35,812 nucleotides of DNA from a virus (lineage: Duplodnaviria; Heunggongvirae; Uroviricota; Caudoviricetes). The stretch's first letter is position 1. Each line of letters opens with the position of its first letter. The notes under the pieces were generated by a model that ran no database searches, was not told the origin of the DNA, and saw only the letters and a program-made list of their open reading frames with translations. This document shows positions 2,319-35,812 of this stretch, piece after piece. The stretch is from the IMG/VR virus record IMGVR_UViG_2693429554_000020, positions 1 to 35,812 of that record; one strand, 5' to 3'. Position numbers and translations under genes: made by a program.

Positions 2319-2733
2319 GCGTTATCGCACTCCACAGATCATCAAAAGAAATCATTACCGGTCCGTCACGACGCCAGAGAGTGATACTGTTACCCAGTTC
2401 ATTAATCCCGGTGCGGCGGATATCCAGATCAATACGGGACACCACGCCGTCATCAGTCATCCATTGCAGGCATTCACGGATATATCCCCTTACCGTCTGC
2501 ACCAGCTGATTGGTCAGTTTGCTGCGCTGAAGCAGCCACAGCCGGGAGCCGTAACGGTCATTCTGTACCGCAGGCCAGGTATCCCCCCACCATCCCATCG
2601 GGACGTCGGCGTTGTCATCAGGCTCCGCCCGCCGCCAGGTAAACAGGGAAATCACCACGGCGCGGGTCAGCGGATCCAGCGGTGCGCTGGCGCAGGTGCG
2701 TTTACCGTTCACCGTCAGCCACAGTTCCATCAT
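2305..2733 (-). CDS. Baseplate protein (Mu gp46-like)
   Basis: 142-aa ORF in operon with baseplate J and V-like genes; synteny-based. Confidence 0.5.
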   Translation of the reverse strand: MMELWLTVNGKRTCASAPLDPLTRAVVISLFTWRRAEPDDNADVPMGWWGDTWPAVQNDRYGSRLWLLQRSKLTNQLVQTVRGYIRECLQWMTDDGVVSRIDLDIRRTGINELGNSITLWRRDGPVMISFDDLWSAITHGGQ

Positions 2734-3224
2734 GCCTCCATCGCTTTATCAGGTTTGTCGGTGTTACTGCCCTGACCGTTCTCTCTGTGACGATGCCCGT
2801 TATAGGCAAGCCGCATCGCTGACATGGTGGTGCCGCCGGAGTCGCACAGGTCTTTCACCTGTCCGGTCACTTCCAGGTCCATTTCAAAACGTGCTTCAGG
2901 TGAATTGCGAAACGTGATCGTTTTACCTGCACCGTCCACCACGATCCCCTCCCGGGTCAGCGTCACGGACTGCCCCTGATCGTCATAGACAGCCACCTCA
3001 CCCGTCTGCAGCCCTTTCAGGCGGTAGCGCCGGTCCGACACCGTAACAACCACCGCATGAGAACGGTCGCCATCCGGAAACAACACCACCGCTTCCGCAC
3101 CGCTGTTTGCCCTTGCGGTAAAACCGTAGGGTTCAAGATGTTCAACCCCGGCTTTGGGTTCACCGGCAATCAGGGACACATCCACGGTCTGACATTTCGT
3201 GGCGGCACTGATGCTTTTCACCAC
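2730..3224 (-). CDS. Baseplate assembly protein V-like (spike)
   Basis: 164-aa ORF between hub-like and gp46-like genes; synteny-based. Confidence 0.5.
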   Translation of the reverse strand: MVKSISAATKCQTVDVSLIAGEPKAGVEHLEPYGFTARANSGAEAVVLFPDGDRSHAVVVTVSDRRYRLKGLQTGEVAVYDDQGQSVTLTREGIVVDGAGKTITFRNSPEARFEMDLEVTGQVKDLCDSGGTTMSAMRLAYNGHRHRENGQGSNTDKPDKAMEA

Positions 3225-3277
3225 TGCCCGCCCAATCAGGCCGAGAAGTTGTCGCTGTATGGTTTCAATCGCCCTAA

Positions 3278-4357
3278 TCAGAACGGGTCCTCCTGTACTC
3301 TGGCTTTTTTCTTTTTCCGCGCGCCGGGATCTTCGGGTTCAGGCAGATAAGCATCAGGCGGGCCGACACGGATTTCCGTCAGGGTTCCGTTCTGGTCCTG
3401 AGTAAACGTGACTTCCGAAACAAGCAGTTCGGTATTGTCGAAACCACAGACCGGATCGAAGACAATCACCCGCTGGTTGGGCTGCCACAGCGTACCGTTA
3501 CCCTGTCGCCAGCCCTGCACCACATAGGTGGTTTCATCCGTCCGCGCCGCCCGTTGTCGGGCTTCAAAGTCAGCACGCGCAATACAGCCTGCCCCCGTGG
3601 CCTGCCCTGTCTGCCTGATATACATCGGACGGTAACGGGCAATAAATGCGTCCTCTGTGCGGGCCCGCAGCGCGGTGGTGGTGGCCTCACCGAAATCATC
3701 GTCGTTTCCGGCACGCTGCCCCGCCACCTGGTAAACAGAAAACCGCTCCCGGATACTCTTCTCCGTATCACAGGAAAGGATGTTTTCCCCAAGTACCAGC
3801 GCGGTATGTGCCCGCGTTGAGCCAATACCGCCAATCACCAGCCTGCCGTGCGGGTCGTCGTAAGCCAGCGCCTGCTGCTGACCGAGTATTTTGTTGATTA
3901 CCTCAATCACCGTTTCACCGTGATCAGGCTGAACATCAGGAATAACACCCGACGGCGCACCGCTGTTCACCACCTCAATGCCAAAAGGCGCAGCAAGCGC
4001 CTGCACAATCTGCACCAGCGAGCGTCCGTTAAACTGTGTCGGTTCGGCTGCACAGTCAATCAGGTCAGCCGTCAGACTACGTCCGGCAATACCGGTGCTG
4101 ACCGAACGGGCATCGTAACGAACGGGAGTCGCCTCCACCCAGCCGGTGATCACCAGCTCATCACCAATCAGCACTTCCACTTTTGAACCGTTTTTAATGC
4201 GCGGCTGAAGCGTGGTGATACCCTCATCTCCCGGCCACTGGCGAGTGATCTCCACACTGAAATCCCGCGCCAGCCGTTCAATACCGGCACCGATGCGCAC
4301 CGATGTCCAGCCATTCCACTCCCGGCCATTTACCCGTAGCGTGACATTGTCGTTCAT
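3278..4357 (-). CDS. Baseplate hub / tail protein (Mu gpP / P2 gpD-like)
   Basis: 359-aa ORF immediately downstream of the N-like gene; size and position fit the late-control-D/hub family. Confidence 0.55.
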   Translation of the reverse strand: MNDNVTLRVNGREWNGWTSVRIGAGIERLARDFSVEITRQWPGDEGITTLQPRIKNGSKVEVLIGDELVITGWVEATPVRYDARSVSTGIAGRSLTADLIDCAAEPTQFNGRSLVQIVQALAAPFGIEVVNSGAPSGVIPDVQPDHGETVIEVINKILGQQQALAYDDPHGRLVIGGIGSTRAHTALVLGENILSCDTEKSIRERFSVYQVAGQRAGNDDDFGEATTTALRARTEDAFIARYRPMYIRQTGQATGAGCIARADFEARQRAARTDETTYVVQGWRQGNGTLWQPNQRVIVFDPVCGFDNTELLVSEVTFTQDQNGTLTEIRVGPPDAYLPEPEDPGARKKKKARVQEDPF

Positions 4358-5742: not shown

Positions 5743-7578
5743 TTACCTGCCAAAGCGCGTATAGCCAACATCATGGCTGACATCAAAACCGCTGGATCGC
5801 GTTTCCATAACCCGCATACCCGGAGGCGAATTCACAAAAGAGACCTTGATCTCACCATCAACTTTTGGCGCAGAAGCTTTGTTAATCATGAAGGGATTCG
5901 GGCCTGTGGCATCGGAGGCGTTGTTTGACTGAGCCGGATCCACCGCCTGATAAGGTGTGTATCCCCGTGCCGGTATTCCCGTCCCATAAGCATCATAAGC
6001 ACCCGCGCCCCACTGCGCAGAGTTAATGGCATCGACCGTGTCACCGGAACTGTCGGTAAACCACTCAATAATTGGCTTCAGCTTGTCCCACATATCCTGA
6101 AACCACTTAACAACCGGTCCCCAGTTATTGATCACCATCCCCAGCGGCGACCAGGCAAAAACCTTCTTCAGAAGTTCCCAACCTGCCTCAAAATAAGGAC
6201 CAATGGTTTCCCAGAGCTTCTTGAAATAAGGTCCGACAACATCCCAGTTAGTGATAATTAATCCCGCAGCCAGAGCAATCGCCGTCGCAATCATGCCAAT
6301 CGGCGTCATCGACATAATCCTGCTGACAATACTGATGGCACTGCCCACGCCCATCAATCCCAGTTTCAGAATCGCAAGACCGGCAGCAAGCCCGACGACG
6401 CCGCGAATAACCCGGGGATTTTCATCCGCAAACTTCGTGAATTTCTCCCCCAACTCCCCCAGCCATTGTGTGATATTTTTAGCGTCACCAGAAAATGCGC
6501 CGCCAATAGCCGCAAGGCCGTTAGTTGCGGTCCCTGTCATTGCCTCCCACAGGTTGGACAGCGTACCAAGCTGTGCCTGAACACGTTTATTCAGGCTGGC
6601 CTGTTTATTCATCTTCTGCTGGATCTGATCGTAGCCATCCTTTCCTTTATCGATTAGTGCATTGACCACCTGAAGGGTTTCGGCATCATCACCAAATATT
6701 GCCTTAAGTACACCTGTTCGCTTAACGTCGGTCAGTTTTCGCAGCTTTGCCAGTTGCCTGAACATGTTATCAAGACCGCCAAAACTTCCTTTGCCGTCAG
6801 TAAAATCGAGCTGTACCCCGAGTTTCTGGCGGGCCATAACTTTATTAACGTCCCTGATTTTCTTAACGCTTAATCCGGACTGGATAACTTTTCGCAGGGC
6901 ATTACCTGCCGACTCCCCGTTCATCCCCATCTGATCCATCATGACGCTGATGGGGGCAAGGCTCTGCGCAGCCTGAAGACCATCCTTGTTCACCATCTTC
7001 AGAACAGAACTGGTTTTAGTGAAGAAGGACAACATGTTGGTATCGTCAACGCCCAGATAAAACGCCTTCTGGATAGTGTCGAACAGCCCCATCATGTCTT
7101 CTGACGCCGTTCCGGTAGCATCCTGCATCTTTGCAGCAAACTCAGCAGCCGCTTCCGGTGTTTTTTTCAGTTGTACCGCAAGATAAGCTGTCGCTTTACC
7201 CACACCACCCAGAATGTTTTCTGCCGGGATCCCCTGACGCACCAGCATCTGCATCATGTTCTGGAAATCAGCCGTTGTACCAGGTAGCTGGTTACCCAGG
7301 CCAATAGCCAGTTTATTGATGTCCTGAAAGCTCTTTCCAACCTCGCCGTTCGCATCCATCATGGCGACTTTCAGCCCGGTGGCGGCGTTTTCCTGATCGG
7401 CATAAGATTTCAGGGAAAGCGTCAGACCCGCTGCCAGTCCGCCACCAAGCGCCAGCCCACCCTGTGACGCTTCTTCCGCCTGGCGTTTAAATCCCCGGAT
7501 TTTCTTTTGCATTTTCGACAGCGCGGGAGAAAGCCTGTCGACACCGGTGATCAACGCCTTAAGCTCAAATTCAGCCAT
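5743..7578 (-). CDS. Tail tape measure protein
   Basis: 611-aa ORF downstream of the frameshifted chaperone pair, with an Ala/Gly-rich hydrophobic central segment; canonical position. Confidence 0.7.
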   Translation of the reverse strand: MAEFELKALITGVDRLSPALSKMQKKIRGFKRQAEEASQGGLALGGGLAAGLTLSLKSYADQENAATGLKVAMMDANGEVGKSFQDINKLAIGLGNQLPGTTADFQNMMQMLVRQGIPAENILGGVGKATAYLAVQLKKTPEAAAEFAAKMQDATGTASEDMMGLFDTIQKAFYLGVDDTNMLSFFTKTSSVLKMVNKDGLQAAQSLAPISVMMDQMGMNGESAGNALRKVIQSGLSVKKIRDVNKVMARQKLGVQLDFTDGKGSFGGLDNMFRQLAKLRKLTDVKRTGVLKAIFGDDAETLQVVNALIDKGKDGYDQIQQKMNKQASLNKRVQAQLGTLSNLWEAMTGTATNGLAAIGGAFSGDAKNITQWLGELGEKFTKFADENPRVIRGVVGLAAGLAILKLGLMGVGSAISIVSRIMSMTPIGMIATAIALAAGLIITNWDVVGPYFKKLWETIGPYFEAGWELLKKVFAWSPLGMVINNWGPVVKWFQDMWDKLKPIIEWFTDSSGDTVDAINSAQWGAGAYDAYGTGIPARGYTPYQAVDPAQSNNASDATGPNPFMINKASAPKVDGEIKVSFVNSPPGMRVMETRSSGFDVSHDVGYTRFGR

Positions 7579-7753
7579 GTGTGCGTTTCTCCTGCTCTAT
7601 CCTGTTTGCCTGACTGACCAGTAAGGGAATTTCACTGATCGGCATATTCAGCAATTCGAAAGGATTAATGCGCCAGTAACTGGCGCAGTCAAAGAAGCGA
7701 TCAGTGAGGTATTCAGCCGTCAGGCCTGGAGGAAAAAACCGGCCACAAGCCAC
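7571..7753 (-). CDS. Tail assembly chaperone, frameshift extension (T-like part)
   Basis: Overlaps the 3' end of ORF 7720..7989 in the -1 frame; slippery T_TTT_TTC at 7738..7732 (minus) would fuse ...VAGFF to PPGLTAEYL.... Confidence 0.55.
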   Translation of the reverse strand: MACGRFFPPGLTAEYLTDRFFDCASYWRINPFELLNMPISEIPLLVSQANRIEQEKRTHG

Positions 7754-7989
7754 GCCGCTGCATTCAGGTCTGCCGGAGACATCTGGTCGACAGAGCTTTG
7801 CGGCACTTTCGCCAGCCGCACGATGTATTTCGATACCACATGCGCCAGAAGTCTGACGGACTCATCCTGATTCATCTGGTAGGGATACCCCAGCTCGCGG
7901 ACATCTTTCCCGGTGGGCTCATCAAACTCCAGTACGGAGAGTGTCTCGCCATGAGCAGTAATCGGTTTCTTTAACTCAAGCTCTTTCAT
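7720..7989 (-). CDS. Tail assembly chaperone (G-like part)
   Basis: 89-aa ORF between tube and tape measure genes, ending 4 codons after a slippery heptamer. Confidence 0.6.
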   Translation of the reverse strand: MKELELKKPITAHGETLSVLEFDEPTGKDVRELGYPYQMNQDESVRLLAHVVSKYIVRLAKVPQSSVDQMSPADLNAAAWLVAGFFLQA

Positions 7990-8345
7990 TACTGGTAATC
8001 CCCTTCTTCACCGTGGAACTCAAGATCGACCGTGCCTTCTTCGGCATTATGGTTCGCTTCGCCGTGCAGCCAGGCAGACGACAGTACATAGACCTGACCG
8101 TTCGCCAGCTCGGCAGTGATGGTCATCTCATCAGACGAGGTGATTTTGCTCACCGGAAAATTCTTCGGCACCTTGAAGGTCCCTTTGACATAGGGCGCAC
8201 GGTGAGTTTCCTTGCGGTCCACTGAACCGTCCAGGCCGATGATGTCATCATTGACCGTCCTGTTCATGGGCACCTCAATGCCGCCGGTCAGCGATAGCTG
8301 CTGACCGTCAATTTTGAAATAACAGGTTCCCCCGATACGTGCCAT
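7989..8345 (-). CDS. Tail tube protein
   Basis: 118-aa ORF immediately after the sheath gene with overlapping stop/start. Confidence 0.6.
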   Translation of the reverse strand: MARIGGTCYFKIDGQQLSLTGGIEVPMNRTVNDDIIGLDGSVDRKETHRAPYVKGTFKVPKNFPVSKITSSDEMTITAELANGQVYVLSSAWLHGEANHNAEEGTVDLEFHGEEGDYQ

Positions 8346-9730
8346 TATGCAGACTCCTCTGAATACTGAAGACGGAACTGGTTAACCACGGCAAAGACAC
8401 GCAACTGGTTAACATAGTCAGGCGGGAACAGCGTGTTCAGGCGGTTCGGATCGCTGGCATCACGCTCCACAACCAGGTACTGCTTAAACAGTTCGTAGTT
8501 TTCCACGATCCCCGCACGCTCAAGCTGACGGTAGGTTGCCAGCAGTTCCCCTTTGATCACCGCCGGGGTGACAATCGCCTGACCGGGACCAAAGCGGGTA
8601 CCGTCACTGGCAAGCTTGTGACGCCCGTACTTACTGGTAATGACGGATTTCAGTTTGCGCAGTACATACGCGCTGGTATGCAGTGTCTCACTGTCGAGGT
8701 AGCTGTTATCCGCAACCCCGTAAGCGTTTTTCCTGTACGTGGTGACATCACGCTGAATGCGTAGCACCCCGCTTTCGACATACGCCGTTGCCACGCCATG
8801 AGACAGCAGGGTCTGTTGTTCGGTCATCGTGAACCGTTTCCCCTTCGGCGCAGGCAGCATACCCACCAGCTCACCGGTCTGCGTGGGACGTGCCGGATCG
8901 TTGCGAATAAACACCGCTGCGCGGGCGGTACGGCTTGCCGCCAGCTCGTCAGCAGGCGTCTGGGTCTCTTTTTCGTACCCCGCCAGGGTAATGTGCTGCT
9001 GGTTAAACTGGTCACCTGCGGTCACCAGTTCTGACAGCGTGCCGATCTTTGCCGTATACACATGACCATACAGCTGACGCGCATAGCTCCAGCGACCGCT
9101 GGTATCGTTCATCTCGGTCACCAGCGTGTTAACGGAGGCCGTGTCGTTGAACGGCAGGCCGATATAATCAAACGGCTCATCCGCCATTGCAGCCACCGCG
9201 CCGGTGAGAACAGGAGAGCCCGTTCCGGCGGTCCCCGTCGCCACGGCAATCTGTACGCCCGCAGGCAGCACTTCGCCCCCACCAAAGCCGTAGTAATTGA
9301 GGCTGACAGGAATTTCATTCCCGCAAAGCCCCTTATGACGCGCGGTCAGTGTGACCACGCCAGCCGAAGATGAAGCTGTAAACGGCAGAGTCGGAACGGC
9401 ATTGATGGCATCTTTGATACTGCTGGCAATCGTCGTGACGTTATCGCCGCTGGTCACCGGAGCCTGCACGCGGGTACGTCCCACATAGACATTCACCGTG
9501 CCGCTTTCGGTTGCTTCCCCGGTCACCGTCAGCGTAACCGTTGCCGCCGCACCTGTGGCTTCCGGAACGGCAATCACATACAGCTCACCAAACGGGTCGG
9601 TCTGGCGATAAGCCTCGACCATACGCGCCAGCTGACTTCCCGCACCACAAATCTGGCGTGCATAGTCTGCCGACGGCATCAGCACCAGACTGTTGGCAAC
9701 AATCTCTGCACCGTATATTGGCATGACCAA
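8345..9730 (-). CDS. Tail sheath protein (C-terminal ~460 codons; N-terminus appears to lie in ORF 9585..9842, shifted frame)
   Basis: 461-aa ORF. The upstream overlapping ORF begins MTISFNTIPSNTLVPLFYAEMDN..., which looks like a sheath N-terminus, suggesting a +1 frameshift near 9713-9731. Total ~497 codons would match Mu-type sheath length. Confidence 0.65.
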   Translation of the reverse strand: MVMPIYGAEIVANSLVLMPSADYARQICGAGSQLARMVEAYRQTDPFGELYVIAVPEATGAAATVTLTVTGEATESGTVNVYVGRTRVQAPVTSGDNVTTIASSIKDAINAVPTLPFTASSSAGVVTLTARHKGLCGNEIPVSLNYYGFGGGEVLPAGVQIAVATGTAGTGSPVLTGAVAAMADEPFDYIGLPFNDTASVNTLVTEMNDTSGRWSYARQLYGHVYTAKIGTLSELVTAGDQFNQQHITLAGYEKETQTPADELAASRTARAAVFIRNDPARPTQTGELVGMLPAPKGKRFTMTEQQTLLSHGVATAYVESGVLRIQRDVTTYRKNAYGVADNSYLDSETLHTSAYVLRKLKSVITSKYGRHKLASDGTRFGPGQAIVTPAVIKGELLATYRQLERAGIVENYELFKQYLVVERDASDPNRLNTLFPPDYVNQLRVFAVVNQFRLQYSEESA

Positions 9731-10004
9731 TCAGCAGCGATGCTCCGCTGTCCTGTGCAGTATTCGCCGCCAAGTTATCCATTTCCGCATAAAACAGCGG
9801 AACCAGCGTATTCGACGGAATGGTGTTAAAGCTTATCGTCATCGGTGTTCACCTTTTTATTCACGCGCCGGATATCACCAGCTGCTTCACGGCGCAGCCA
9901 GTAGTTGTTCTCATCAACATTTCGCCCTTCGGCGGGCAAAAGGTCGCCGCGGGCAGGGTCAGGCACTGACCGCCCTTTAACAGGTTTCACAAACATGATG
10001 ATCC

Positions 10005-10565
10005 TCAGGAAGGAAGGGGTATTTCGGTGTGATGTTCGATATCGCCGTCAGGCCCGTTACCGGGATCGAGATAATCAACATCAATCGCCAGCGTTCGCAG
10101 TTCATCCAGACTGTTCAGGTCATCCTGCTGGCGGGTATCGTCTTCGGTCAGCTCGCTGATGACCGAAAAATCGAACTGATAAATCAGCTCATGACGATTC
10201 AGATCCAGCAGCGTGCCGCCGTCATAGGTAATCGGGTTACCGCACGCTTCCGGGTTCCAGCCCAGCAGGGCCTTAAAGAGCATCTGCCGGACATCGTCCA
10301 CCACATCATACGAAGCAAACTGACCGCGCTCATCACGCCCGTTACTCAGTATGACAACCACGGAGAAGCCCTCTTTCAGCTCCTGCCAGTAGTCGGTCTG
10401 GCTTTTGTTTTCTCCCGGAGAATCATCACCCGGTACAACATATGCCGCCGGGAGTTTCAGCTTTCCGACCTCCGGCAGATTTTTGAACTGGGCCGCGCCT
10501 GCAACCCGGTTTTCAAAATACGGACAGCGGGCACGCAGTGCAGCAATAACAGGCGTCAGTTTCAT
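10005..10565 (-). CDS. Putative tail completion / neck protein
   Basis: 186-aa acidic ORF between head-tail joining genes and sheath; position-based. Confidence 0.4.
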   Translation of the reverse strand: MKLTPVIAALRARCPYFENRVAGAAQFKNLPEVGKLKLPAAYVVPGDDSPGENKSQTDYWQELKEGFSVVVILSNGRDERGQFASYDVVDDVRQMLFKALLGWNPEACGNPITYDGGTLLDLNRHELIYQFDFSVISELTEDDTRQQDDLNSLDELRTLAIDVDYLDPGNGPDGDIEHHTEIPLPS

Positions 10566-19433: not shown

Positions 19434-19769
19434 TTACTCCTTCGAGCTACCAAATTTGTTACCGATTACTCGCATTGCAGCCCCACGAATAGCATCGACA
19501 CCGATCAGCCCCACGCCACCACCAATGGCAACAGAAAGCGATTTAGGCCATCCGACATATTCAAGAGCGGATGCAAAGGTCAGCGTCAGAGCGCCACATA
19601 GCAAAATCTCGAGCGTTTTTCGCTTCCAGCCACCACCACCGCCAAAATAGGCGATGCGCAAACCAGCCATAACGATCGACATAATCACTGCACCCAGCGG
19701 TGTGTCTCCACGCCACCAGCTCTGAAACAACTCCAGCCAGTCCGGCCAGGTATTTGGGTTATGAGGCAT
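19434..19769 (-). CDS. Holin (divergent lambda S-like)
   Basis: 111-aa ORF with about three hydrophobic segments directly upstream of R; loose pattern similarity to lambda S. Confidence 0.55.
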   Translation of the reverse strand: MPHNPNTWPDWLELFQSWWRGDTPLGAVIMSIVMAGLRIAYFGGGGGWKRKTLEILLCGALTLTFASALEYVGWPKSLSVAIGGGVGLIGVDAIRGAAMRVIGNKFGSSKE

Positions 19770-19845: not shown

Positions 19846-20898
19846 TTATTTCCCCACCAGTTCACTTACCTCTTTCACCGTCTGATTAAACCGCTCTGAC
19901 TCAAGTTCAACACCTAACGCCCGACGCCCCAGCGCCATTGCTGCTTTTATTGTGGAACCGGATCCCATAAAGAAATCAGCAACCAGATCACCAGGTCGAC
20001 TACTGGCATTGATTATTTGCCGGAGCATATCCGCCGGTTTCTCGCACGGATGTTTACCCGGGTAGAACTGAACGGGCTTATGCGTCCAGACATCGGTATA
20101 AGGCACGGAGACTGATACGGAGAAATAGCGCCGGAGAGATTTAAACTCATCCAGCAATTCAGAATATTTGCGATTCAGTGAATCATAAGATGCCACCAGC
20201 TGGTGGTGTGGTTGTTCCAGTTGTTGTTCCTGAAACTTCTCTGCCGCTATACGGGAAAACAGTGCCTGTAACTTCCGATAGTCAGCCTCATTCGGCAACT
20301 GCCACTGACTGGCACCAAACCAGTGGGAAACCATATTTTTCTTACCTGTGGCTTCGGCAATTTGTTTTGCCGTTATACCCAGTTCGGCACGAGCATCCCT
20401 GAAATACGATATCAGCGGTGCCATTATGTGCTGTTTGAGTTCCCTTTCTTTTGCCGCATAGCCGTCACTTTTGCCGCGATATGGCCCCTGGTAATGTTCA
20501 GCAAACAGAACGCGCTCTGTGGCAGGAAAATATGCGCGCAGACTTTCTTTATTACACCCATTCCAACGTCCGGACGGCTTCGCCCAGATGATATGGTTAA
20601 GCACGTTGAAACGTTCACGCATCATGATCTCAATATCAGATGCCAGGCGATGCCCACAGAACAGGTAAAGGCTTCCGGCAGGTTTTAACACCCGCCAGAA
20701 CTGGGCCAGACAGTGGTCCAGCCACTTAAGGTAATCTTCGTCCCCTTTCCACTGATTGTCCCAACCGTTAGGTTTCACCTTGAAGTAAGGCGGATCGGTA
20801 ACAATCAGGTCAATGGAATCATCAGGCAGGGACTGAATAAAATGCAGGCAATCAGCGTTGATTAAATCAACACTGTTTATTTTTACAGTATTTTTCAT
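19846..20898 (-). CDS. DNA methyltransferase, N6-adenine/N4-cytosine type (DPPY motif), orphan
   Basis: 350-aa ORF with IVTDPPY catalytic motif and C-terminal SAM-binding-like FFMGSGST; no adjacent restriction endonuclease gene. Confidence 0.8.
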   Translation of the reverse strand: MKNTVKINSVDLINADCLHFIQSLPDDSIDLIVTDPPYFKVKPNGWDNQWKGDEDYLKWLDHCLAQFWRVLKPAGSLYLFCGHRLASDIEIMMRERFNVLNHIIWAKPSGRWNGCNKESLRAYFPATERVLFAEHYQGPYRGKSDGYAAKERELKQHIMAPLISYFRDARAELGITAKQIAEATGKKNMVSHWFGASQWQLPNEADYRKLQALFSRIAAEKFQEQQLEQPHHQLVASYDSLNRKYSELLDEFKSLRRYFSVSVSVPYTDVWTHKPVQFYPGKHPCEKPADMLRQIINASSRPGDLVADFFMGSGSTIKAAMALGRRALGVELESERFNQTVKEVSELVGK

Positions 20899-21516: not shown

Positions 21517-22443
21517 ATGAAAGTTAGAAGCATAGGATTTACAATAAATAACAATAACAAAAATATTAATACCGTTGACGTAATGAATGCTTTTATCAAC
21601 GCATCAAACAGAGAACACAGTCGCACAGACTATACTCGTAAAATTCTCATTTCGGATGTGAATGATTTCTATTATGGATTAGTTGTCACATTCAGAAACC
21701 AAAAAAAGAACTGTAAGTCGCAATTTGTTGATGGTAAATTCCAGCTTAAAATTGAAGATCTTCAAGGAAGTGACAAACTTGCTAATTTCAACTTTTTCTT
21801 AATTAAAAAATCTAATCTTTCTGGTCTCTATATGTATCACCACGGGTCATGCAGTCTGAACACTCTCTTTTCTCATTTAGAAACAATAAGTAATGAATTT
21901 ATCAGAAATCAAAATAAAGAAGAAATAAAAAAACTTGGTGATAAACCAAAACAAAAAGAAGTAACTGCAATAAATAAAAAATACAAAGAAAGACTGACTT
22001 TCAGCCTTATGACAAATAAAAACAACATTCAGAGTGTTTTATGTCAATTCAAAGAGATTAAAAGCACAAGCTTTAAATTTAATTATATAGATTTTAAAGG
22101 TGGACCAATGACTGCGCTTGAACAATTTGTTAACACCACCACAATAGATATGAATTTTAATTCTAGCGACAGAACAAAAGTGCAACAACTATCTCAGAAT
22201 CTTTCAAATATTTATAATTCTATGAGTGGAGTTGCTAAAGCACAGGTTATTGCAGTAAACCATGCAGGAATAGAAAAAACCATTGATTTTATGAACTGCC
22301 CTGTTTTTTTTGAAACATACGATTTCGATATAATTGCCGATAAAGTCAATGGATTGACAAACGATAATTATACAACAAACCCTGTTTTTGATATGATAAA
22401 AGAAGAAATGCTGAACGGGACGAATAAAAATGCCTTTATATGA
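21517..22443 (+). CDS. Hypothetical protein, AT-rich cassette gene 1 (no family recognised)
   Basis: 308-aa ORF in roughly 30% GC DNA with Asn-rich N-terminus (TINNNNKNINT), opposite strand to the flanking phage genes, 14-nt overlap with the next ORF. Confidence 0.6.
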   Translation: MKVRSIGFTINNNNKNINTVDVMNAFINASNREHSRTDYTRKILISDVNDFYYGLVVTFRNQKKNCKSQFVDGKFQLKIEDLQGSDKLANFNFFLIKKSNLSGLYMYHHGSCSLNTLFSHLETISNEFIRNQNKEEIKKLGDKPKQKEVTAINKKYKERLTFSLMTNKNNIQSVLCQFKEIKSTSFKFNYIDFKGGPMTALEQFVNTTTIDMNFNSSDRTKVQQLSQNLSNIYNSMSGVAKAQVIAVNHAGIEKTIDFMNCPVFFETYDFDIIADKVNGLTNDNYTTNPVFDMIKEEMLNGTNKNAFI

Positions 22444-22978
22444 ATGGCTAATAAATAAAAGGTTGAGGTATCAGTACCTTACACTGCTTGCATTCTCGAT
22501 CCTGGCATTGCTTGCACTTTACCTATTGTACAGAAACACACCTAAAGTAAGTGTTAACTTTTTTGATTTTTATCATAAAAACTTACGAGGCTATCTCTTC
22601 TCCGGTTTTATTTCCGTGGGCTCATTTTTATTGAGCCTGCATACCTTTGTCATAATAAATTTACGCGATAAGGTTTTTGCAACTCAGGAATATAAGGAAA
22701 TTTATAGCATTGCCACTGGTATACCTATTGACAAAATCAATGATAGTGCACTTTATAAACCTTTAGACAATTTATCCTCATTTATTAATACATCAATATT
22801 ATGTTCTATCACAACAGCAATTGCACAATTCACTATTGGACTTTCAACTAATTTATATGCATGCTTATTTTGCGTATGGCTTGCAATACTAACGGTATTT
22901 CTTTTATTACATTGCCTCATCATAATCAGACAAAATATTAAAATTTTATTAAAGCAACAGAGAAAAAAAGGGGGGTAA
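22430..22978 (+). CDS. Hypothetical membrane protein, AT-rich cassette gene 2 (about four TM helices)
   Basis: 182-aa ORF with four hydrophobic segments, translationally coupled to gene 1 (ATG inside ...ATGCCTTTATATGA...), basic C-terminus. Confidence 0.6.
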   Translation: MPLYEWLINKRLRYQYLTLLAFSILALLALYLLYRNTPKVSVNFFDFYHKNLRGYLFSGFISVGSFLLSLHTFVIINLRDKVFATQEYKEIYSIATGIPIDKINDSALYKPLDNLSSFINTSILCSITTAIAQFTIGLSTNLYACLFCVWLAILTVFLLLHCLIIIRQNIKILLKQQRKKGG

Positions 22979-25553: not shown

Positions 25554-25876
25554 ACTTTCAGGCCTCTCTCATGTAGCCAGTGGGTTGCACGCAGCCTTGC
25601 GTTTTCCTCATCGGCAAGCAGTGAGCGGATAATCCCGACAGCCTCGCTGTCGTCGTCCTTCACCGCGGTATGAAGCGTTATCCCCCGGGCCACGCCACGC
25701 TTTATCGTGATGACGCCTTTTTTCTCCAGTGCGCGAAGATGCTCCACCGCTGCATTCACCGAACGGTATCCCAGCATGGTTGCCACCTCCTGATTGGTTG
25801 GCGGGAAGCCACGTTCTTTCTGGTAAGAAATCAGCATATCCAGCACCTGCTGCTGGCATTGAGTTAACGTCGTCAT
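25550..25876 (-). CDS. LexA N-terminal DNA-binding-domain-like protein (no S24 peptidase domain)
   Basis: LTQCQQQVLDMLISYQKERGFPPTNQEVATMLGYRSVNAAVEHLRALEKKGVITIKRGVARGITL parallels the LexA winged-helix domain; start at ATG 25876 in a TAATG overlap with the upstream gene. Confidence 0.6.
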   Translation of the reverse strand: MTTLTQCQQQVLDMLISYQKERGFPPTNQEVATMLGYRSVNAAVEHLRALEKKGVITIKRGVARGITLHTAVKDDDSEAVGIIRSLLADEENARLRATHWLHERGLKV

Positions 25877-27317: not shown

Positions 27318-27656
27318 CTATTTCCCTGAATTTACGACGAAACTGTTCGAGCGGGCTGAAGCACTCATGCTCATAGCCTTCACGGAGGTAGATAACCCGT
27401 TGTGTTTCCGGCTCCCAACGAATGACTCTGACGGGCACTCCGTAGTGATCTTTGAACCAGCGGTTAACTTGTCGCAAAGGACTGTCTCCTTCTGCCGGTT
27501 GAAATCACCCACAGCCCACTCTGCAAAGCTGTGGGTTACAATTTCCCTGTCACCTGGTACATTTACTGCATAGCAATACTCCACCTTCGCTTTTCCACCC
27601 GGTACAGGAAGCGCAATCAGTTGCGAGCGACGGTAGTGTGTTGTTAAACTGTTCAT
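27318..27656 (-). CDS. Hypothetical protein (early-right operon)
   Basis: 112-aa ORF ending 7 bp before the initiator start. Competes with overlapping ORFs 27550..27801 (-) and 27301..27573 (+); weak call. Confidence 0.3.
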
Positions 27657-27906
27657 GCGTTAGTTTCTCCACAGTCACGACACGCCACGGCGCCCGGAGC
27701 TGCACACTCGCGGGCGTCACTCTTTTCTGGAGCGCAAAAGATTTTGTAGACCAGTGCTGCATGCTCCTGGAGCTTCGAAATTGACAGATACAACTCATCA
27801 TTAATTGCTGTCTGCTCGTGTGGCTCCACTACCCCATCTTCGATTGCCGAACGAATCTGCTTTGAGTAACTCCCGATCTGTTCGATGACTTCCAGCAGGC
27901 GCTGGT

Positions 27907-28272
27907 TTATACTACCTCCTCAATTTCAGGAAGCGATACGAACACCCCACCAGCAGACTGTGCGACAGCATCCGCAATGTAGTGAGTGCCAGCTGCGCGC
28001 TGTAAAACCATTGCCCATCCCAGCGGGAAAATCTGATCGCCATCGGCACGAAGGCGGTTAAATAATGCGTTCTCTGTTACATCCAGCCAGTCAGCAGCTT
28101 CAGCGTAACCACCCGGCAACGCCGCGATAGTTTTTCTGACAGCTTTCACGTACCACTCAGGCTGTTTTTCTACTTTCCAGTGATGCTTACCCACGGTTAA
28201 CTCCTCGTTTCTGTGGTTACGTTTACGCAACTGAACCGCTAACTTTTGAATAGCACTCTGGTAATCCATCAT
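27907..28272 (-). CDS. CII-analogue regulatory protein (YdaT-like)
   Basis: Follows the Cro-like gene as in Rac-type immunity regions; start at internal Met (MMDYQ...) to limit overlap. Confidence 0.45.
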   Translation of the reverse strand: MMDYQSAIQKLAVQLRKRNHRNEELTVGKHHWKVEKQPEWYVKAVRKTIAALPGGYAEAADWLDVTENALFNRLRADGDQIFPLGWAMVLQRAAGTHYIADAVAQSAGGVFVSLPEIEEVV

Positions 28273-29313: not shown

Positions 29314-29661
29314 ATGGCTAGTGAGCAGGGATTCGAAAAGATTAACATGGATATGTTGGTCTCTTATTTCTCAGAAAAGAATATATATCTAAAATGTACA
29401 CTATGTGGACACGACAGATTGACTGTGCCTCAAGTCAGCGCGAATGTGGGCATGCCATGTACTATGAAACTTGGTAGTTATGTGAATGTTTTTACTGAAA
29501 AAAGCATTTATTCTGATACTGCTAACCAGTATTACTTTTCACTAATATGCAACAATTGTGGAAATGAAATTCATATAAATGCGTTTTCAGTTTTGAACTG
29601 GGTAAATGAAAAGTTCCCAGCAAAAACGGAAGATGAAAAAAATGCCGACGCCGCAAAATAA
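29314..29661 (+). CDS. Zinc-ribbon protein co-transcribed with cI (hypothetical)
   Basis: 115-aa ORF 16 bp after the cI stop with AAGGG SD; CxxC pairs (CTLCGH..., CNNCGN); AT-rich. Confidence 0.5.
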   Translation: MASEQGFEKINMDMLVSYFSEKNIYLKCTLCGHDRLTVPQVSANVGMPCTMKLGSYVNVFTEKSIYSDTANQYYFSLICNNCGNEIHINAFSVLNWVNEKFPAKTEDEKNADAAK

Positions 29662-29728
29662 TGTAGTACCATTTAATAGTGAACTTCCCACAATTAGAAG
29701 ACACGGTGGAGATGGCGGAGGTGATGAC

Positions 29729-30013
29729 ATGCTTGAAGCCCGAGTCGCTAAGTTAGAAGCGAATGTTGAGGATATAAAAACAAATCTCGCAGAGATGAGA
29801 GCTGACATTCGTGATTTGCGAAACGCTCTCTCCGACACCCGACGCGATGTCGCTGTTATCCTTCAAAAACAAATAGATATAGATGAAAAGTTGTCAAAAA
29901 AACCTAGCCTAAGTGAAGTCAACAGCGCTATTTCATCAGCCGTAAATAAACAGATCGCATGGACTGTTGCAACAGGCTTGGCGATTTTAGGTCTCGCCAA
30001 ATTTATGTTTTGA
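29729..30013 (+). CDS. Coiled-coil protein with C-terminal transmembrane anchor (hypothetical)
   Basis: Track ORF 29606..30013; start at ATG 29729 preceded by GGAGGTGA SD (7-nt spacing). Heptad-like LEARVAKLEANVEDIKTNLAEM, then IAWTVATGLAILGLAKFMF. Confidence 0.45.
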   Translation: MLEARVAKLEANVEDIKTNLAEMRADIRDLRNALSDTRRDVAVILQKQIDIDEKLSKKPSLSEVNSAISSAVNKQIAWTVATGLAILGLAKFMF

Positions 30014-31128: not shown

Positions 31129-31511
31129 ATTAGTCTCAGTTTTCCTTGGGTGGTTTTGGAGGAACTGGAGGCTTTTGTCTTAACGGCACATGCCTCTCCT
31201 CATACTTATCTACACATCGTTCCATATAAATCCTTATCGTTGTTGGGGAGGGTTACATAATAACCAAATCCTTGTTGTTGGGGAATAACTAGGTCCACCT
31301 CGCCTGATGTGGCTAAAAGCAGGCACATAACAGCTAAGTATTTTCAACCAGAGAGAATCCTTAGCGTTGTGGTGAATGCGGCTCAGCGCACGCGGGTAAA
31401 GGTTGAGGCTGACAGTCGACCTTCTGTGGATACCCACCCGCCTGGTGTGCAACCTTCGCCAGGCACCGGGAGGCGCCCGGCACCACAACTTTATGCTGTG
31501 TGTAGTCTTGG

Positions 31512-32964: not shown

Positions 32965-33314
32965 TGGAGCCATACAGCCTCACACTCGATGAGGCCTGTC
33001 ATTTTCTCAAGATATCCAGACCGACTGCCATTAACTGGATACGCACAGGGCGTCTTCAGGCAACACGCAAAGATCCCACTAAGAATAAATCTCCTTACCT
33101 CACAACACGACAAGCCTGCATTGCGGCTCTTCAGTCTCCGCTGCATACTGTCCAGGTGAGCGCGGGTGATGGCATAACAGAGGAAAGAAAATGTCACTCT
33201 TCCGCAGAGGTGAAATATGGTACGCCAGTTTCACATTGCCGAACGGTAAAAGATTTAAACAGTCTCTTGGAACAAAGGACAAAAGGCAGGCGACAGAACT
33301 CCATGACAAGCTAA
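32964..33314 (+). CDS. Excisionase-like HTH protein (AlpA/Xis-type)
   Basis: [33 protein letters not shown] motif; GAGGTG SD 5 nt upstream; 3' end overlaps the integrase start by about 124 nt. Confidence 0.5.
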
Positions 33315-34354
33315 AGGCTGAAGCATGGCGGGTCAGCAAACTTGGTGAAATACCTGATATAACGTTCGAGGAAGCGTGTGTCAGGTGGCTTGAAGAGAAA
33401 GCACATAAAAAATCACTGGACGATGACAAAAGCCGGATCGGATTCTGGCTTCAACATTTCGCAGGAATGCAACTAAGAGACATTACTGAATCAAAAATTT
33501 ATTCAGCAATGCAGAAAATGACGAACCGGCGTCATGAGGAAAACTGGAAACTCAGGGCAGAAGCATGCAGAAAAAAAGGGAAACCTGTTCCAGAATACAC
33601 GCCAAAACCAGCGTCCGTTGCAACGAAGGCTACGCATCTTTCATTTATAAAGGCCCTACTAAGAGCCGCAGAGCGTGAATGGAAAATGCTGGATAAGGCA
33701 CCAATTATTAAAGTGCCTCAACCAAAGAATAAACGGATCCGCTGGCTGGAGCCCCATGAAGCACAAAGGCTGATTGATGAATGTCCGGAGCCATTAAAGT
33801 CTGTTGTTGAATTTGCACTGGCAACAGGCTTAAGACGCTCGAACATCATCAACCTTGAATGGCAACAAATAGATATGCAGCGCCGGGTGGCATGGATAAA
33901 CCCGGAAGAGAGTAAATCAAACCGCGCAATTGGCGTTGCGCTGAATGATACTGCATGTCGCGTATTGAAAAAACAAATCGGGAATCATCACCGTTGGGTA
34001 TTTGTGTACAAGGAAAGCTGTACCAAACCAGACGGAACGAAAGCGCCAACAGTAAGGAAGATGCGGTATGACGCAAACACAGCCTGGAAAGCGGCGCTGA
34101 GACGGGCTGGTATTGATGATTTCAGATTTCACGACTTGAGACACACCTGGGCAAGTTGGCTGGTTCAAGCCGGAGTCCCGTTGTCAGTGTTACAGGAAAT
34201 GGGAGGCTGGGAGTCTATCGAAATGGTTCGTCGATATGCTCACCTTGCACCTAATCACCTTACCGAACACGCACGGCAAATAGACTCGATCCTGAACCCA
34301 TCGGTCCCAAATTTGTCCCAGTCAAAAAATAAGGAAGGTACTAATGATGTGTAA
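33191..34354 (+). CDS. int: Tyrosine integrase
   Basis: 387-aa ORF with arm-binding-like N-terminus ([15 protein letters not shown]) and C-terminal [11 protein letters not shown]...VRRYAHL catalytic motif; ends 15 bp from the tRNA 3' end. Confidence 0.85.
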
Positions 34355-34368
34355 CTTATTGATTTAAA

Positions 34369-34444
34369 TGGTGCCGATAATAGGAGTCGAACCTACGACC
34401 TTCGCATTACGAATGCGCTGCTCTACCAACTGAGCTATATCGGC
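34369..34444 (-). tRNA. thrW: tRNA-Thr (anticodon CGU)
   Basis: 76-nt cloverleaf read on the minus strand: GCCGATATAGCTCAGTTGGTAGAGCAGCGCATTCGTAATGCGAAGGTCGTAGGTTCGACTCCTATTATCGGCACCA; anticodon loop TTCGTAA. Confidence 0.9.
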
Positions 34445-34558: not shown

Positions 34559-35812
34559 TTACGCACGAATGGTGTAATCACCAATGCCGATCCACTTGTA
34601 AGTGGTCAGTGCTTCCAGCCCCATTGGGCCGCGCGCGTGGAGTTTTTGTGTGCTTACCGCCACTTCCGCCCCCAGTCCAAACTGGCCGCCGTCGGTAAAA
34701 CGCGTAGAGGCGTTAACGTAAACAGCGGAGGAATCCACTTCGTTAACAAAACGCTGGGCGTTGCGCATATCGCGGGTCAGGATCGCATCGGAGTGTTGCG
34801 TGCCGTGTTCACGAATATGGGCAATGGCGTCATCCAGATCGCTAACGATTTTGACGTTCAAATCTAATGACAGAAACTCATCGTCATACTCTTCGGCTTT
34901 AACAGCCACCACCTTCGCGGGGCCTGCCTGCAACTGCGCCAGCGCGGCTGCATCAGCGTGTAACGTCACGCCGCTTTCCGCCATTTGTTTGCTTAATGCG
35001 GGCAGGAAGCTATCAGCGATGTTTTTATTCACCAGCAACGTTTCTACCGTATTACACGTGCTCGGACGCTGAGTTTTCGCGTTGACAATTACTTTCAGGG
35101 CTTCAGCGATCTCTGCGCTTTCATCAACGTAAATATGGCATACGCCTATACCGCCTGTGATCACCGGGATTGTCGACTGTTCGCGGCACAGCTTATGCAA
35201 GCCAGCGCCACCACGCGGGATCAGCATGTCGATGTATTTATCCATACGCAGCATTTCACTGACCAGCGCACGGTCAGGATTATCAATTGCCTGCACGGCA
35301 CCCGCCGGTAAGCCGCAGGATTTCAGGGCGTCCTGAATCACCGCTACCGTTGCAGCGTTAGTGCGACAGGTTTCTTTGCCGCCGCGCAGGATCACCGCGT
35401 TACCGGTTTTCAGGCACAGGGAAGCAACATCAACCGTCACGTTCGGGCGCGCTTCATAAATCACGCCAATCACCCCCAGCGGTACGCGACGACGCTCAAG
35501 ACGCAGGCCGCTGTCCAGTACGCCGCCATCGATTACCTGCCCCACCGGATCGGCGAGGTTGCACACCTGGCGCACATCATCGGCAATGCCTTTCAGCCGT
35601 GCGGGCGTCAGTGCCAGACGGTCAAGCATCGCTTCGCTAAGGCCATTGGCACGCGCGTCAGCAACATCCTGGGCGTTAGCGTTGAGGATGATTTCGCTTT
35701 GTGCTTCCAATTCATCGGCGATTTTTTCCAGCACACGATTTTTTTCGCGGCTGGAGAGTTGCGCTAATTTATACGAGGCTTGCTTTGCGGCAATGCCCAT
35801 TTGTTCCAGCAT
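34559..35812 (-). CDS. proA: Gamma-glutamyl phosphate reductase ProA
   Basis: Complete 417-aa ORF recognisable as enterobacterial ProA; start codon is the last three bases of the window. Confidence 0.9.

Follow-up and report, generated by a model that had tools for sequence, protein, structure and literature searches.

The question raised by this locus is whether a phage tail sheath gene is truly broken, and whether the prophage that carries it is defective as a result. The window, by which we mean the whole stretch of DNA that was analysed (35,812 nucleotides), contains two minus-strand open reading frames (ORFs) that an earlier reading of the letters alone (the sequence-only reading) had taken for the parts of one sheath gene separated by a frameshift. 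Our analysis makes it very probable that the tail sheath of an SfV-like prophage at thrW has been inactivated by a genuine, inherited 1-nt insertion, and that the prophage alone yields no infectious particles.

The shorter ORF (9842..9585, minus strand) encodes 85 amino acids, opens with MTISFNTIPSNTLVPLFYAEMDN and then becomes Cys/Arg-rich. The longer ORF (9730..8345, minus strand; 461 amino acids) lies in a different frame and has a TTG start at 9730 directly after an in-frame TGA. The sequence-only reading had described both in these terms; the short ORF was recovered with the same coordinates and sequence and with a match to PHROG 165, and the TTG of the long ORF does follow a TGA. The two ORFs are the two pieces of a single tail sheath gene of the Mu-gpL/SfV-orf11 type. 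The parts of this gene are the following:

8345..9842, minus strand: whole tail sheath pseudogene (Mu gpL/gp39, SfV orf11 type), 1498 nt here and 1497 nt in all relatives.
9716..9842, minus strand: native 5' part, running from the ATG through codon 42 to the first base of codon 43; sheath N-terminal arm region.
9715, minus strand: inserted base, T on the minus strand and A on the plus strand; frameshift in codon 43.
9585..9714, minus strand: remainder of the 85-aa product, read out of frame: 43 missense residues (IRCRDCCQQ...PVW), ended by a TGA.
8345..9714, minus strand: sheath codons 43 (last two bases) to 498 and the stop, with all three Pfam sheath domains.

Residues 1-42 of the 85-aa ORF matched positions 1-44 of PHROG 165 'tail sheath' (E = 1e-11), and Pfam gave no match for this ORF. 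Only these first 42 residues matched anything, namely the sheath N-terminus, and in the correct frame the DNA at 9585..9714 encodes sheath residues 43-86. Because the PHROG 165 match covers residues 1-42, the 85-aa ORF is read as a sheath N-terminus followed by 43 missense residues and not as an independent conserved gene, a possibility that had been raised against a split sheath.

The frame of 8345..9714 is open from the TTG at 9730. All three sheath domains of the Pfam set Phage_sheath_domII, Phage_sheath_1 and Phage_sheath_1C were found above their gathering cut-offs in both the repaired protein and the 461-aa ORF: PF04984 at 117.5 bits (cut-off 31.4), PF17482 at 77.4 (cut-off 26.9) and PF17481 at 46.4 (cut-off 31.4). 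The E-values of the three domains on the long ORF were 5e-34, 9e-22 and 5e-12. The surrounding tail module (10005..10565, 9826..9996, the sheath, 7989..8345, 7720..7989 and 5743..7578) pairs one-to-one with annotated relatives as terminator, DUF2635 protein, sheath, tube, assembly protein and tape measure. The gene thus has the three domains, an N-terminal arm homologous to that of a characterised sheath and the tail-module position that mark the sheath family. It does not have a single uninterrupted frame in which the N-arm, the domains and the C-arm form one polypeptide. We classify it as a member of the sheath family by descent, yet a pseudogene.

The DNA was aligned with the prophage of E. 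coli FDAARGOS_1284 and with SfV, which is the comparison with intact sheath genes that had been proposed earlier, and the window was found to contain one extra base, at 9715. This position falls within the interval 9713-9731, in which the shift had been placed. At the site of codon 43 the relatives read GCCAATA-ACGG and the window reads GCCAATATACGG; the inserted T changes codon 43 from AAC (Asn) to A-T-AC. The insertion lies outside any homopolymer (context AATA[T]AC), in agreement with what had been noted at the junction.

Removal of base 9715 gave 498 codons plus a stop (1497 nt). The earlier proposal that a shift would join the two ORFs therefore holds, and its figure of about 497 codons becomes 498 plus the stop. 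The repaired sheath was identical at 496/498 residues to the intact E. coli protein WP_021535156.1, with the differences Q24L and N131S, and at 491/498 residues to orf11, which is the sheath protein of the functional phage SfV. N131S is the effect of a substitution at position 9450, and codon 24 carries a CA>TT change in the window (CCAGG>CTTGG). A base-calling artefact at a Dcm site (CCWGG) was considered for codon 24 and rejected, as this codon is hypervariable in the relatives (CAG, GTC, TCG, GTT, TCT); such an artefact is also countered by the window being otherwise without indels.

The distribution of the insertion was examined with the region 8345..9842 as the query. Matching records among the complete E. 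coli genomes numbered 1106, nearly all at 95-99.7% identity; the weaker E. coli matches were 16, at 60-80% identity. Twelve phage records (SfIV, SfII, SfV, SfI and E. coli phages) matched at 97.3-98.3%. The 40 E. coli matches listed, out of the 1106 records, all span 1497 nt against the 1498-nt query, and the same span was seen in 11 of the 12 phage matches, the twelfth covering query positions 10-1498. The listed E. coli matches and 11 of the 12 phage matches are annotated as a single tail sheath gene. A 121-nt probe containing the insertion was fully matched in 0 of 1196 places in the complete E. coli genomes, where the matches listed span 120 nt. The exact insertion pattern was not found in the GTDB species representatives, IMG/VR or the JGI metagenome contigs, and an exact look-up of the 85-aa product found nothing. 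The wild-type junction pattern was present in at least 120 IMG/VR viral contigs, and the extra base was missing from all 130 junction instances (130/130) in the fetched loci and from the eight reference loci.

Data that would restore one continuous ORF, which the sequence-only reading had named as evidence against a broken gene, were sought in other assemblies, and the same extra base was found there instead. These carriers were detected only through the long ORF as gene callers predict it (459 or 461 aa). The broken allele is present in GCA_001277775.1 (CYBT01000035.1), which is 100% identical to the window over 19.3 kb, and in GCA_000714185.1 (JOQR01000034.1, E. coli 6-175-07_S1_C1), which is 99.97% identical, with six substitutions in 19.3 kb. 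It is also present in the Logan assembly of SRR1186686, where the locus is 100% identical to the window. Every carrier assembly that reaches the junction has the insertion, and the two long contigs also have the ATT start of the gp45-like gene described below. The six substitutions of GCA_000714185.1 (4 non-synonymous and 2 synonymous, mostly A:T>C:G) may be draft-assembly errors, since SRR1186686 covers two of these positions and at both has the same base as the window. Some of the carrier assemblies could come from one isolate or from siblings, given that the window and the Sanger sets show 100% identity and that the 6-175-07 series may include SRR1186686. Because this allele recurs in sequence sets other than that of the window, the extra base is taken, on these comparisons, as a mutation inherited within a lineage of E. 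coli that different submitters have sequenced several times.

Two explanations would leave the sheath whole at this site. In one, the extra base arose as an artefact in a single assembly and the sheath gene of the real genome is an uninterrupted 1497 nt; single-base indels are the commonest kind of consensus error, and the complete E. coli genomes in the collection are without the insertion. Such an artefact should not be reproducible in other sequence sets, and the base recurs in three assemblies: two NCBI assemblies deposited separately and one that Logan re-assembled from raw SRA reads, with carrier sets that come from different submitters (an ENA-style CYBT accession; JOQR/KEL47056.1). The 18-kb structural module was 99.76% identical to its nearest relative, with 42 mismatches and one gap in 18,017 aligned bases, and this single gap is the 9715 insertion itself, so the assembly is not indel-noisy. 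The insertion is moreover not in a homopolymer, and the same lineage has a 10-bp deletion and a start-codon change, both of which are atypical of consensus errors. Sequencing error was therefore rejected on the recurrence of the allele in other assemblies, and we regard it as exceedingly unlikely. In the other explanation, a programmed +1 ribosomal frameshift or another form of recoding near 9715 yields a full-length sheath by design. The post-shift zero frame does meet the rare codons ATA, CGG and AGA, at which pausing is possible. The frame split is not conserved, however: relatives, including the functional phages SfV, SfII, SfIV and SfI, have a single frame, and the split occurs only in near-identical (99.97-100%) assemblies. 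The codons GCC AAT ATA CGG TGC AGA offer no +1 re-pairing option for the P-site tRNA, and around 9715 there is no slippery or prfB-like motif and no in-frame stop at the shift site. An upstream Shine-Dalgarno-like stimulator at the right distance was not found, and an Rfam search of 9300-10000 returned nothing at E up to 1. By analogy with Mu, a tail would need ~180 sheath subunits, for which frameshifting at the level of error would be insufficient. Programmed frameshifting, lacking conservation, a motif and an Rfam element, was rejected, and its probability is considered negligible.

The consequence of an inherited insertion can be considered against the sheath of phage Mu. Cryo-EM has shown that Mu gp39 has three domains (I-III) flanked by an N-arm and a C-arm, and that the sheath is made of 30 hexameric rings (PMC11915804). 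A four-stranded 'handshake' sheet, which holds the sheath mesh together, is built from the N-arm of one subunit, the C-arm of the subunit beside it and a beta-hairpin from the next ring; a handshake interaction with the baseplate wedge protein gp46 starts sheath assembly and survives contraction (PMC11915804).

In the window, translation from the native ATG (9842) would give the 85-aa peptide, in which 42 residues of the N-terminal arm are followed by the 43 missense residues. The remaining 455 codons, with all of the folded sheath domains, lie in the other frame, which has no usable ribosome-binding site. No Shine-Dalgarno sequence was found 5-10 nt upstream of the TTG (9730) or of an ATG (9724), the nearest GGAG being 12 and 18 nt away, respectively. 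The sheath body would be either unmade or made without its N-arm, and a sheath without a covalently attached N-arm should fail to polymerise. With no contractile tail, the prophage alone would be unable to build infectious particles. By analogy with the Mu sheath structure, the most likely outcome is a loss of sheath assembly, because the N-arm is separated from the body, and with it a loss of infectivity.

It could be argued that the 461-aa (or 459-aa) ORF, expressed from an internal start, still works, either alone or with the 85-aa N-fragment in trans. Its three folded domains are intact, the short ORF still codes for the N-arm peptide, and annotators call the long ORF as a protein. The internal TTG and ATG starts have no Shine-Dalgarno sequence at a usable spacing, however, and coupling by termination and reinitiation is unavailable, as the upstream ORF stops 140 nt further downstream. 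In Mu the N-arm must be a covalent part of each subunit, since it links the rings and starts assembly on gp46 (PMC11915804), and a detached arm carrying 43 missense residues would presumably be unable to tether subunits. We judge a working product from the internal start to be highly improbable. A different objection accepts that the gene is broken and holds that the prophage is not functionally dead, since a related co-resident prophage could complement the sheath (and the spike discussed below) or repair it by recombination. Related E. coli genomes contain up to 4 homologous sheath copies, with nearly all matches at 95-99% identity, and the other structural, lysis, replication and integration genes of the window prophage are intact. 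Against this, the median sheath copy number is 1 in the E. coli genomes that have the gene; the view here is confined to the 35.8-kb window. Such a rescue is unlikely. That a sheath-less tube-and-baseplate particle might retain some activity is very doubtful. The reading preferred here is that the inherited insertion has inactivated the sheath gene and that the prophage, alone, is non-infectious.

The window is ordered as tail fibre, baseplate, tail, head, terminase, lysis, late and early regulation, and integrase. The features that define its integration site, and two further lesions, are the following:

33191..34354, plus strand: integrase.
34369..34444, minus strand: tRNA-Thr(CGT) (thrW), prophage attachment end, beside the integrase and proA.
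34559..35812, minus strand: proA.
3276..3278, minus strand: initiation codon of the Mu gp45-like spike (baseplate V) gene at 2730..3278; it reads ATT, where every relative examined has ATG.
27656..28194, minus strand: ymfL, a CII-like regulator gene interrupted by a deletion of 10 bp (between 27912 and 27913).

The integrase is next to tRNA-Thr(CGT), beside proA, as in an SfV-like prophage; thrW is the integration site of SfV-type phages. Because the thrW attachment end adjoins proA, the element sits in the chromosome. The far prophage end, at which an SfV-like element would carry O-antigen modification (gtr) cargo, lies beyond the window, which begins within the tail-fibre region. From its gene content, the region is identified as an SfV-like temperate myovirus with an HK97-type head and a Mu-type contractile tail, integrated at thrW of E. 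coli. The prophage cargo includes an orphan type II-like DNA methyltransferase and, on the opposite strand, a two-gene module without assigned function; PADLOC and Pfam searches of the two-gene module (21517..22978) found nothing.

The spike gene starts with ATG in 48/48 loci that have the junction, and the ATT is common to two sister assemblies. ATT is a very weak initiator. A good AGGAGG precedes the spike gene, which overlaps with the stop of the gene before it. The lesion may be hypomorphic rather than null, because of this AGGAGG and because few spike copies are needed per virion.

In ymfL, residues 1-94 and 99-183 are in different frames. The family assignment comes from PHROG 101 (E = 2e-34) and from Pfam Phage_CP76, which matches both halves. 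The deletion was seen against otherwise ~99% identical alleles in complete E. coli genomes, and the full-length matches listed all span 136 nt against the 126-nt query. A truncated 95-aa ymfL product is recorded in GCA_001285825.1 and in Logan ERR134532, both of which are 100% identical over 16-18 kb. A look-up of the 132-aa ymfL ORF found nothing.

The remaining structural ORFs were checked against eight references, comprising five E. coli prophages and the phages SfIV, SfV and SfII. Apart from the split sheath, all have a single terminal stop and the expected length, the ATT start of the gp45-like gene being the one defect. The lysis cassette, Q, the replication genes, the repressor/Cro pair, the excisionase and the integrase are intact. 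Lineage-private structural substitutions were 5 non-synonymous (including the start loss) to 2 synonymous, compared with 374 to 691 in the relatives; the direction fits relaxed selection, and the difference was not significant (Fisher p = 0.10). Because the other structural ORFs are intact and the non-synonymous excess is not significant, the decay appears to be recent and slight, and the element is best described as an early-stage defective prophage and not as a long-domesticated remnant.

The claim of a defective prophage, made in the sequence-only reading, is supported by the sheath frameshift together with the two other lineage-private lesions, the loss of infectivity itself being predicted from the Mu structure; the further suggestion of that reading, that the cargo genes are host-retained, is conjecture. 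The frameshift and the spike ATT would inactivate at least one morphogenesis gene that is presumably essential, as judged by comparison with Mu. That the sheath, spike and CII-like lesions are the first steps of a selected domestication in a circulating E. coli clone, with the lysis, replication, integration and moron genes left intact, seems very doubtful; if it were so, the cargo would stay with the host, possibly along with lysis on induction or DNA packaging by the heads, and spread as a phage would be lost.

An annotation of this region should treat the two ORFs as one gene, marked as a sheath pseudogene, and list the prophage as probably non-infectious, which bears on phage-typing, on predictions of inducibility and on the reading of the accessory genes. 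Defective prophages with a single lesion, and prophages with frameshifted morphogenesis genes, are met with very often in E. coli. The present one is an ordinary decaying prophage whose allele is already in GenBank, and it adds nothing new about phage or host biology; its value is as a clean, well-controlled case of a recent inactivating mutation fixed in a lineage.

Among database proteins, KEL47056.1 (461 aa) and CTS51711.1 and CTU35754.1 (both 459 aa) are identical in sequence to the window's long ORF. In all three entries the annotation is simply 'phage tail sheath protein', and none is flagged as a pseudogene. The closest intact relative, WP_021535156.1 (FDAARGOS_1284, PCN061), is 99.7% identical to the window sheath at the nucleotide level; unlike the window, it has a continuous 1497-nt ORF, and the gp45-like gene there has an ATG start. 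The sheath genes of SfV (orf11, NP_599043.1), SfII, SfIV and SfI are 97.5-98.3% identical in nucleotide sequence across the whole gene. The SfV-type phages share with the window the same order of tail terminator, DUF2635 (Mu gp38-like) protein, sheath, tube, tail assembly protein and tape measure. They differ in that their sheath genes are intact and the phages infectious, whereas the window gene has the 1-nt insertion, and the early/immunity region of the window prophage is a different mosaic.

The more distant comparison is with Mu gp39 (gpL; PDB 9khy/9ki1/9lj8), to which the sheath is homologous over residues 3-490 (E = 8.5e-81), 9khy being the closest solved structure. The two sheath sequences have clearly diverged in the HMMER alignment, and Mu has the head of a transposable phage, in contrast to the HK97/P27-type terminase and capsid of the window. 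They have in common the conserved N-terminal ISFN-IPS--VPL-Y-E-DN arm and the gp43-gp48 baseplate architecture (Pfam Phage_Mu_Gp45, GP46, Baseplate_J and Phage_Mu_Gp48).

The Mu gp45-like spike gene of the window begins with ATT, where 48 of 48 comparable loci and eight references have ATG. Its position, and those of two other altered sites and a pair of open reading frames (ORFs) discussed with it, are as follows:

2730..3278, minus strand: Mu gp45-like spike / baseplate V gene, start codon at 3276-3278.
9771-9773, minus strand: codon 24 of the tail sheath gene, in the N-terminal part that precedes the frameshift.
27656..28194, minus strand: ymfL, a CII-like regulator gene, split by a 10-bp deletion at 27912/27913.
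29314..29661 and 29606..30013, plus strand: two overlapping ORFs adjoining the repressor.

Both sister assemblies with the frameshifted sheath gene (GCA_001277775.1 and GCA_000714185.1) also have the ATT start, which probably represents a hypomorphic or null start-codon mutation of the spike gene. Of the approximately eight changes private to the lineage across the 17-kb structural module, three are clustered in a 320-bp stretch of the sheath gene (Poisson p ~0.03). Sheath codon 24 is TTG in the window and is hypervariable among the relatives (CAG, GTC, TCG, GTT and TCT), with flanking codons that are almost invariant.

The ymfL deletion was defined against alleles of ~99% identity from complete E. 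coli genomes. The truncated 95-aa product was also present in GCA_001285825.1 and in Logan ERR134532, an assembly of a public read set. Beside the repressor, the 135-aa ORF at 29606..30013 aligns with PHROG 3556 only across the C-terminal half of that family (positions 138-265 of 276), and on the strength of this partial match may be a gene that is truncated or split; the overlapping ORF matches another family, PHROG 4293.

The sister assembly GCA_000714185.1 (JOQR01000034.1) differs from the window by six substitutions, at 836, 3794, 6455, 10136, 15207 and 19662. A:T>C:G transversions account for four of the six; the number of non-synonymous changes is also four. At both of the two substitution positions that it covers, the SRR1186686 Logan assembly carries the window allele. 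The six substitutions may be errors of the draft assembly or a mutT-like mutation signature.

Three further features were compared with databases or with the related prophage of E. coli 19SZHZ886Rt:

19434..19769: lambda-family holin, with an in-frame 9-bp insertion at 19740 relative to 19SZHZ886Rt.
19846..20898, minus strand: DNA methyltransferase of 350 aa (PADLOC MTase_II, E = 2e-152).
21517..22443 (308 aa) and 22430..22978 (182 aa), plus strand: two-gene module whose neighbours are on the other strand.

The methyltransferase gene lies directly upstream of the holin, and its copy in a sister contig matches Pfam N6_N4_Mtase. As no restriction gene was seen adjoining it, the predicted enzyme looks like an orphan phage methyltransferase. 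The two-gene module, flanked by the Q antiterminator on one side and the methyltransferase/lysis genes on the other, is moron-like cargo. No match to it was found in Pfam or PADLOC; the first of its proteins belongs to PHROG 2802 (category unknown function), and the module is 99-100% conserved in 19SZHZ886Rt.

The holin comprises 111 aa in the window and 108 aa in 19SZHZ886Rt. An A4/A5 run at 31320 differs in length by 1 nt between the two, in a region annotated in relatives as a frameshifted hypothetical gene. In both E. coli FDAARGOS_1284 and 19SZHZ886Rt, the LexA-like and PerC-like genes flank a 654-bp gene for a phage N-6-adenine methyltransferase. In the window this gene is cleanly missing and its two neighbours abut with a 4-bp overlap (25873-25876), an arrangement that resembles the modular presence or absence of a gene and not damage.
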